Origin: Octopus sinensis
Taxonomy: Eukaryota
DNA: 64,000 nucleotides
Reading direction: 5' to 3'
Assembly (NCBI RefSeq): GCF_006345805.1
Contig: NC_043020.1
Span: 23,746,001 to 23,810,000 of the forward strand
The notes under the pieces were generated by a model. It was given only the letters and a program-made list of their open reading frames with translations, did no database searches and had not been told where the DNA came from. Positions 24,164 through 24,645 of the stretch are shown in pieces. The stretch's first letter is position 1. Every line of letters begins with the position of its first letter. The translations under genes were made by a program, and so were the position numbers.

Positions 24164-24640
24164 TATAAACAGTAACTGCTCTATAACATAAGGGGGATCA
24201 GCCATCTGAATGTGGCTAGGGACAGGGCGGGGTAGTGGGGGTAGAGCAGTTACTGTTTATACCTCGCTCAGAGATTTATTATTGTTGTCGAACGGTTTTT
24301 CTACATCAGTGACTGTGGTTACTGTGAAAATCCATATATATCCAGCCTGTAGAGGAGGTCCCTCAACGAAGAACGGTGCTTACCATGCGTTGATAAAAGG
24401 CAAATACCTCGAAACCGGTCCGTATGTAGTATCCGTATCTTCGGGGAGGCTGATCTCCCTTTGCAGGCTGGCAAGGAGACCGAAATGGTGTCAGCCCTTC
24501 TGGTGACGTTGATGATCGCCTGGGGCTAAATGCATCAGTAACACCCCCACTACCCCGCCCTGTCCCTAGCCACATTCAGATGGCTGATCCCCCTTATGTT
24601 ATAGAGCAGTTACTGTTTATACCTCGCTCAGAGATTTATT

Positions 24641-24645
<5 letters not shown>
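24164..24645 (+). mobile_element. Young non-coding PLE pLTR or retrozyme-like module with hammerhead motifs
   Basis: Perfect 44 bp direct repeat (24242-24285, 24602-24645; 360 bp period); perfect 79 bp inverted copy (24164-24242 versus 24543-24621); hammerhead at 24384-24426. Confidence 0.8.

Follow-up and report, generated by a model that had tools for sequence, protein, structure and literature searches.

A young (TA)n insertion of a 360-nt non-coding repeat with a hammerhead motif and Penelope-like insertion features in an octopus genome

The window analysed here, a stretch of 64,000 nt of Octopus sinensis DNA, contains at positions 24164-24645 a compact arrangement of direct and inverted repeats set into a TA microsatellite, and it raises the question of what kind of element this is and which machinery placed it there. 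The evidence presented below makes it highly probable that this is a young insertion of a 360-nt non-coding, multi-copy repeat (family A) with a conserved type-I hammerhead motif of the U3-A8 kind, most likely reverse-transcribed into (TA)n by the reverse transcriptase (RT) and GIY-YIG machinery of resident Penelope-like elements (PLEs). The insertion is composed of the following parts:

24157..24163, no strand: left flank, a short (TA)n stretch remaining from the target microsatellite, from sequence reading
24164..24242, minus strand: inverted arm, truncated at its 5' end, with unit 302-360 and then unit 1-20 in reverse complement; identity to the direct arm 100%
24242..24601, plus strand: full 360-nt unit of repeat family A, RNA-sense strand, from repeat search and family comparison
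24602..24645, plus strand: 44-nt 'tail', which begins a second unit (unit 1-44) and has a T-type 3' end
24645..24687, no strand: (TA)21.5 target microsatellite on the right side

The first-pass annotation had described a 79-bp inverted copy, a 360-bp unit and a 44-bp repeat of the unit start within (TA)n, and the repeat search recovered them all. The inverted arms (24164-24242 and 24543-24621) are 100% complementary over 79 nt, and the direct repeat (24242-24285 and 24602-24645) is 100% identical over 44 nt at a spacing of 360, an agreement far beyond chance. The outer (3') end of the inverted arm lies at unit 20, where it stops at GTTTATA and adjoins the TA run. The G+C content of the unit is 49%. 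Neither of the two ATG open reading frames that overlap it (98 and 70 aa) has a Pfam match, and a PLE-type frame with RT and GIY-YIG domains is absent from the unit, which is therefore non-autonomous at most. The proposed recent mobilisation agrees with the absence of any difference across the 79 nt common to both arms. Only five of 48 head-to-head insertions, the window copy among them, have arms without differences, and inter-arm divergence is 0 to ~4.6% in 45 of the 48 pairs, with three outliers higher; the window copy thus ranks among the youngest insertions of the family. Directly to the left of the insertion lies a SINE-like repeat (24027-24157) with a partial inverted copy on the right (~24838-24880); the word depth of this repeat is ~10^4 times that of the 360-nt unit in the four sequencing runs examined.

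Search of the 2.7-Gb genome with the 482 nt of 24164-24645 gave 198 matches (2616 first-look candidates, 40 of them scored), and the ribozyme-region 17-mer CCTCGAAACCGGTCCGT has 315 exact genome matches (149 forward, 166 reverse), compared with 0 for its reversed control. The possibility of a single-copy sequence, raised at the outset as contrary to a mobile element, gave way to a repeat that is multi-copy and dispersed. Near-identical words of family A also occur in sequencing runs filed under four organism codes (A-D), which indicates that the family is common to close relatives, and contigs from one organism-B run bear the family-A majority letters. Contigs of runs X1, X5, X6 and X9 span the unit with family-majority letters, and these could be DNA rather than RNA.

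The insertion architecture was reconstructed from 111 loci, comprising the best DNA matches and all exact matches (38 and 48) of two 22-mers, each made of one kind of 3' end plus TATATA. Merging of these loci by genome coordinate gave 244 BLAST segments in 97 insertion clusters, of which 54 are head-to-head (-+) inverted pairs, 42 are single arms and one is complex; tail-to-tail pairs number 0. On the 3' side the arms stop at one of two fixed positions, unit 360 or unit 44/45, whereas their 5' ends are scattered across the unit. Among 153 arms, 81 end at unit 40-47 (T type, ...TTATTATTGT followed by TA repeats), 69 at unit 353-360 (E type, ...CCCTTATGTTA followed by TA repeats) and three elsewhere. 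Exactly one T arm is combined with one E arm in 52 of the 54 head-to-head clusters (30 in the order TE, 22 in the order ET). Two clusters break this one-tail rule, and the window copy is among them, its inverted arm running 20 nt beyond the E end. Among the arms longer than 60 nt that were scored, 41 of 123 exceed one unit, with a maximum of 765 nt, and arms of the form 1-360 + 1-360 + 1-45 occur; arrays are short in family A, at most 2.1 units. The polarity of the clusters agrees with a check of 17-mer neighbours, which is independent of how the ends were ascertained: within 1 kb, the first 100 listed of the 315 matches yield 18 pairs in the -+ orientation, 0 in the +- orientation and 14 same-strand pairs spaced by 354-360.

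Of the 97 clusters, 61 have a (TA) run of at least four repeats within 16 nt of each end, 30 have such a run at a single end and six have none, counts to be read with the caveat that the search patterns forced TA at one end of the pattern-derived loci. In three of the six clusters without (TA)n (C10:15001926, C2:182456904 and C6:58306439), flanking direct repeats of ~9-12 nt were read by eye. The first-pass annotation had proposed a test for variable permutation points and had set fixed ends with target-site duplications against its own reading. The outcome is mixed on both counts: the 5' side does vary, but on the 3' side the ends fall at two fixed positions, and flanking repeats of ~9-12 nt are present outside (TA)n. 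The 5' ends are over-represented at unit 1-4 (10 of 123 arms) and do not pile up at the predicted cleavage site of the ribozyme (unit 176-185, two of 123 arms). The unit 1-4 cluster marks the same boundary as the E-type 3' end. The cluster suggests either a defined 5' end of the RNA or a preferred stop of the reverse transcriptase, and the excess is explained equally well by a circle and by a linear RNA whose 5' end is defined.

A partial tandem combined with an inverted truncated arm had been likened to PLE insertions from the window copy, and the likeness is confirmed across the 97 clusters: 5' truncation, partial tandems, an adjacent inverted 5'-truncated copy, a one-sided tail and a microsatellite target are all present. 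The insertion features of family A are those of the published PLE insertion architecture, for which Craig et al. 2021 (PMC8557442) describe 5' truncation, partial tandems, an inverted 5'-truncated copy, a tail of 30-40 bp at one end and a bias to (TA)n, a target that masks the target-site duplications of PLE insertions. As far as that description extends, family A differs in the length of its tail (44-45 bp) and in being without an ORF. The (TA)n bias is stated there for Naiads, which have an N-terminal endonuclease, whereas the resident PLEs of the present genome have a C-terminal GIY-YIG.

Such PLEs are present in number. The Pfam GIY-YIG domain gave 147 matches from 5029 candidates, in open frames of up to 883 aa, and one PLE locus has a 764-aa ORF bearing both RVT_1 and GIY-YIG. 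We inspected 30 of the 5029 candidates as PLE loci. On the sense strand, eight of the 30 carry UUGAUAA-GGUUC...GAACC-GAAA-CAUG-U(A/U) 414-917 nt past the ORF stop, a hammerhead-like motif whose core is of the U3-A8 kind and which contains the palindrome ACAUGU. Seven of these eight copies end ~110 nt later (in ...ACAAATA or ...ATAAACA), directly adjoining TA repeats, which are long runs in five cases and short runs broken by other sequence in two. The loci noted are the following:

L172:1501-3795 (G000:C6); L149, L158, L161-L164, L170, L171: PLE loci, U3-A8 hammerhead-like motif ~110 nt before the 3' end at (TA)n

The resident PLEs therefore share with family A the (TA)n target, the U3-A8 variant of the core and the insertion architecture. 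Between the 360-nt unit and the 30 PLE loci no sequence similarity was found save an adjacent family-B-like stretch (L168) and an 18-nt match (L145); with no shared 3' sequence at these loci, we infer the partner PLE from target, core variant and architecture.

The hammerhead motif lies within the unit, and its parts in the window copy, all on the plus strand, are as follows:

24384..24426, plus strand: type-I hammerhead motif, from covariation, Rfam HH9 alignment and cofolding
24384-24389 with 24421-24426, plus strand: helix I
24390-24396, plus strand: core UUGAUAA
24397-24410, plus strand: helix II and its loop
24411-24414, plus strand: GAAA
24414-24419, plus strand: palindromic helix III, ACCGGU
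between 24420 and 24421, plus strand: predicted cleavage site

In the family A majority the motif reads CAUGCG-UUGAUAA-GAGG-CAAAUA-CCUC-GAAA-CCGG-UC-CGUAUG. It comprises a 6-bp helix I, a 4-bp helix II with the G10.1-C11.1 pair, A15.1 and U16.1 flanking the palindromic CCGG, and C17 at the predicted cleavage site, after which comes the 3' strand of helix I. Position 10.1 (24397), a G in the majority, is A in the window copy, which implies a weaker helix II. Compared with the consensus core (C3 U4 G5 A6 N7 G8 A9 / G12 A13 A14 / A15.1-U16.1 / H17), the motif agrees at all positions save U3 and A8, which pair in the active fold and co-vary: among 48 variants, positions 3 and 8 are UA in 28, CG in 16, UG in two and otherwise in two. 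To collect these variants, a regular expression was used in which the boxes and the order of purines and pyrimidines in the 3' strand were the only fixed elements and no pairing was demanded. It returned 52 distinct variants, of which 48 were aligned; L085:750-797 and L160:3004-3052 (non-family), L012:2074-2120 (junction inside helix I) and L064:1258-1306 (5'-strand indel) were dropped. Standard pairs form in 95.3% of 663 pair cells (88.5-99.3% for individual helices), versus 15.7-49.5% when the partners are slid. Changes on both sides are found in nine of 15 pairs, and the observed pairing or covariation score was reached by none of 500 shuffles. Covariation supports three helices around the core, the variants coming from few lineages (mainly family A versus its sister family B) and the independent events being far fewer than the cells. 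The helix III variants CCGG, CUGCAG, CCUGGG, CUCGGG, CCCGGG and CUAUAG are all palindromic or quasi-palindromic.

Rfam found no hammerhead in positions 23500-25500 of the window at E<=10 and gave 0 matches at the gathering score in 20 loci (68 kb). The Rfam models are insensitive to hammerheads without a helix III hairpin, and for this reason these blank searches were not counted as absence of a hammerhead. In searches of ~70 nt the sole family matched was Hammerhead_HH9 (RF02275). The window copy (24372-24440) scored 19.5 bits and a majority copy (L003) 28.0 bits, with E values of 0.0046 and 8.7e-06 that apply to searches of this small size, and neither score reaches the gathering score of 52 bits. 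The alignment extends over the full 77 positions of the model and takes in the outer stem of helix I; the letters UUACC and GUA next to this helix agree with the model. Besides the lower score (19.5-28.0 versus 52 bits), the motif differs from RF02275 in having no loop 3 and in U/A at positions 3/8. The first of the two hammerheads originally proposed is thus retained as a motif of the family majority, its fold supported by covariation and its HH9 match below threshold. When two copies of the majority motif are cofolded, the predicted structure has the topology of a double hammerhead at -28.5 kcal/mol, versus -20.6 for two monomers, with helix III and helix I formed in trans and helix II in cis.

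These properties resemble those reported for the hammerheads of PLE terminal repeats (pLTRs) by Cervera & de la Pena 2014 (PMC4209133), where U3-A8 covariation, dimeric action and a palindromic helix III are described and the U3-A8 covariant is first noted with the Cercyon PLE of Schistosoma mansoni. The motif of family A is alike in the replacement of C3-G8 by U3-A8, in its type-I topology and in the palindromic 15.2-16.2 / loop 3 segment implying dimeric action. Relative to the PLE hammerheads as presented in that paper, family A has helices of canonical size (6 bp for helix I, 4 bp for helix II) with the G10.1-C11.1 pair, lacks an additional nucleotide following A9 and resembles HH9 in the outer stem of helix I, and its host is a 360-nt non-coding unit in place of the repeat of an ORF-bearing PLE.

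A sister family was revealed by loci that match only unit 5-44 (tail-only loci among L033-L067). The unit of this family B is 352 nt long and is repeated at least four times in tandem in L131 (~825-2218, G000:C30); the family gave 2819 first-look candidates, and one of its 19-mers has 538 exact genome matches. Families A and B are 67% identical over the whole unit and match at 41 of 44 positions in the tail region. The first 44 nt are the most conserved segment of the two units, and this segment may be the site recognised for priming. The hammerhead of family B has the canonical CUGAUGA core (C3-G8) and a CUGCAG helix III; Rfam gave no match for family B. Three sites are intermediate: L031:875-923 and 1258-1306 combine a U3-A8 core with the CUGCAG helix III of family B, and L057:1255-1303 has U3 together with G8 and a CUAUAG helix III. 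Sister families with C3-G8 and U3-A8 in one genome constitute a natural compensatory pair for testing the C3-G8 interaction.

Taken as a structure, family A is a 360-nt non-coding unit with one type-I hammerhead motif and with tandem copies (the 14 same-strand pairs). Judged from its sequence, it falls within the structural definition of the animal non-LTR retrozymes and would belong to this known class rather than to a new kind of element. The comparison with the metazoan retrozymes of Cervera & de la Pena 2020, as far as described in PMC7229834, extends to a non-coding unit within 170-400 nt, a single type-I hammerhead, tandem or partial-tandem copies, G+C below 50%, flanking duplications of more than 4 bp and co-existence with hammerhead-bearing PLEs in one genome. 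Family A departs from those retrozymes in the U3-A8 core, in its predominantly head-to-head pairs in (TA)n, in short arrays (at most 2.1 units, and at least four in family B) and in being known from DNA. We found no description of inverted, one-tailed retrozyme insertions in the available text of PMC7229834 or of the preprint 10.64898/2026.07.22.740005, in which the link between retrozymes and PLEs is argued from co-occurrence and pLTR similarity.

According to the most probable explanation, the template would have been an RNA of the plus polarity of the window, longer than one unit, and the PLE RT and endonuclease would have copied it by target-primed reverse transcription at (TA)n. Multimeric transcripts are predicted to undergo dimeric self-cleavage between 24420 and 24421 through the palindromic ACCGGU helix III. 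The resulting monomers may be ligated into circles, and such circles could in turn serve as templates, as in the circle-template model proposed for animal retrozymes (PMC7229834). If cleavage and circular templates are real, family A is an animal (non-LTR) retrozyme. The predicted stability of the circular fold against shuffles (z of -2.8, moderate, for family A and -0.6, none, for family B) is not diagnostic of a rod-like circle.

The main rival to this explanation accepts the dependence on PLEs and differs in the template: a non-autonomous repeat would spread as linear read-through RNA from tandem or solo copies, starting at unit 1 and ending at 360 or 404, and the hammerhead would be an inherited relic, inactive or irrelevant, with neither self-cleavage nor circles. 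The fixed 3' ends are as expected for such an RNA, as is the clustering of 5' ends at unit 1-4 (10 of 123) and not at the ribozyme site (two of 123), and a strong rod-like fold is absent. Minimal PLE hammerheads cleave poorly in vitro, as reported in PMC4209133, and Naiad PLEs proliferate without a canonical hammerhead according to PMC8557442. On the other hand, compensatory changes across families that are only 67% identical preserve the core, all of the helices and the palindromic nature of helix III, a pattern that speaks for selection acting on the ribozyme fold of the source copies, and the 41 of 123 arms longer than one unit point to multimeric or circular templates. On balance we regard the linear RNA with a relic ribozyme as the less likely account, though one with some weight. 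It is rather improbable that the unit is the pLTR of an unsampled autonomous PLE and that its copies are extreme 5' truncations. PLE insertions are indeed heavily 5'-truncated, often with only the terminal repeat left (in the account given by preprint 10.64898/2026.07.22.740005), and the PLE loci inspected are 30 of 5029 candidates. However, units adjoin units directly, with no coding sequence between them, both in arms of 1-360 + 1-360 + 1-45 and in the same-strand neighbours spaced by 354-360 (14 pairs from the first 100 listed of the 315 matches); none of the 97 clusters continues on its 5' side into other shared sequence; and the similarity of the unit to the 30 PLE loci is confined to the L168 stretch and the 18-nt match in L145.

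An origin at the DNA level, whether from a foldback, MITE-type or Helitron-type transposon or from replication errors that produced a palindrome and a tandem at unstable (TA)n, has very little probability. Helitrons insert at AT dinucleotides, a preference that would suit the target observed here, and the fragility of (TA)n tracts and the nearly palindromic form of the locus would suit replication errors. This origin is nevertheless already contradicted by the structure of the arms and by the polarity counts. Hundreds of dispersed copies have one fixed end, the other being truncated to varying extents; the inverted arms copy the 3' part of the unit over varying lengths and are not fixed terminal inverted repeats; and the polarity is strictly head-to-head, both in the clusters (54 versus 0) and among the first 100 listed of the 17-mer matches (18 versus 0). 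In addition, RT-encoding PLE copies show the same architecture and target.

Reverse transcription by the resident PLE machinery is retained as the most probable explanation of the insertion. The fixed priming sites (unit 360 and 44/45), the one-tail rule (52 of 54), the arms longer than one unit and the lack of ends at the ribozyme site could together be the footprint of a PLE reverse transcriptase that takes a circular or multimeric hammerhead RNA as its template and primes at the two sides of a (TA)n break, a proposal that we advance tentatively and consider somewhat doubtful. If two-sided priming is true, these insertions would amount to insertion-level proof that PLEs mobilise animal retrozymes, and they would offer a concrete model for the origin of the enigmatic inverted, tailed structures of PLEs. 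The regularity of the one-tail rule is striking. The full PLE insertion signature of this young family ties a retrozyme-like repeat to the PLE machinery, and family A shares both the (TA)n target and the unusual U3-A8 core with resident PLEs that are apparently intact. With 360-nt units, tens of young copies and simple end rules, it represents a tractable system for the poorly understood integration of PLEs.

A further conserved structure of the unit underlies what the first-pass annotation had taken for a second hammerhead:

24476..24492, plus strand: hairpin, GAGACC-GAAAU-GGUGUC in the window copy

Both strings quoted as hammerhead traces were found in the sequence, the second of them between 24448 and 24496. 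As a hammerhead this second trace was rejected: its box is CTGATCT, and it depends on two family-rare changes on a conserved hairpin, namely G at 24478, common to only two of 134 other family copies, and A at 24484, the second A of GAAA, common to only two of 141. The resemblance is due to chance and lies over a different, conserved stem-loop. This hairpin reads GACACC-GAGAU-GGUGUC in the family A majority and GGCACA-GAAAG-UGUGCC in family B, with two compensatory pairs between the families, and the majority letters at 24478 and 24484 are present in all four sequencing runs examined.
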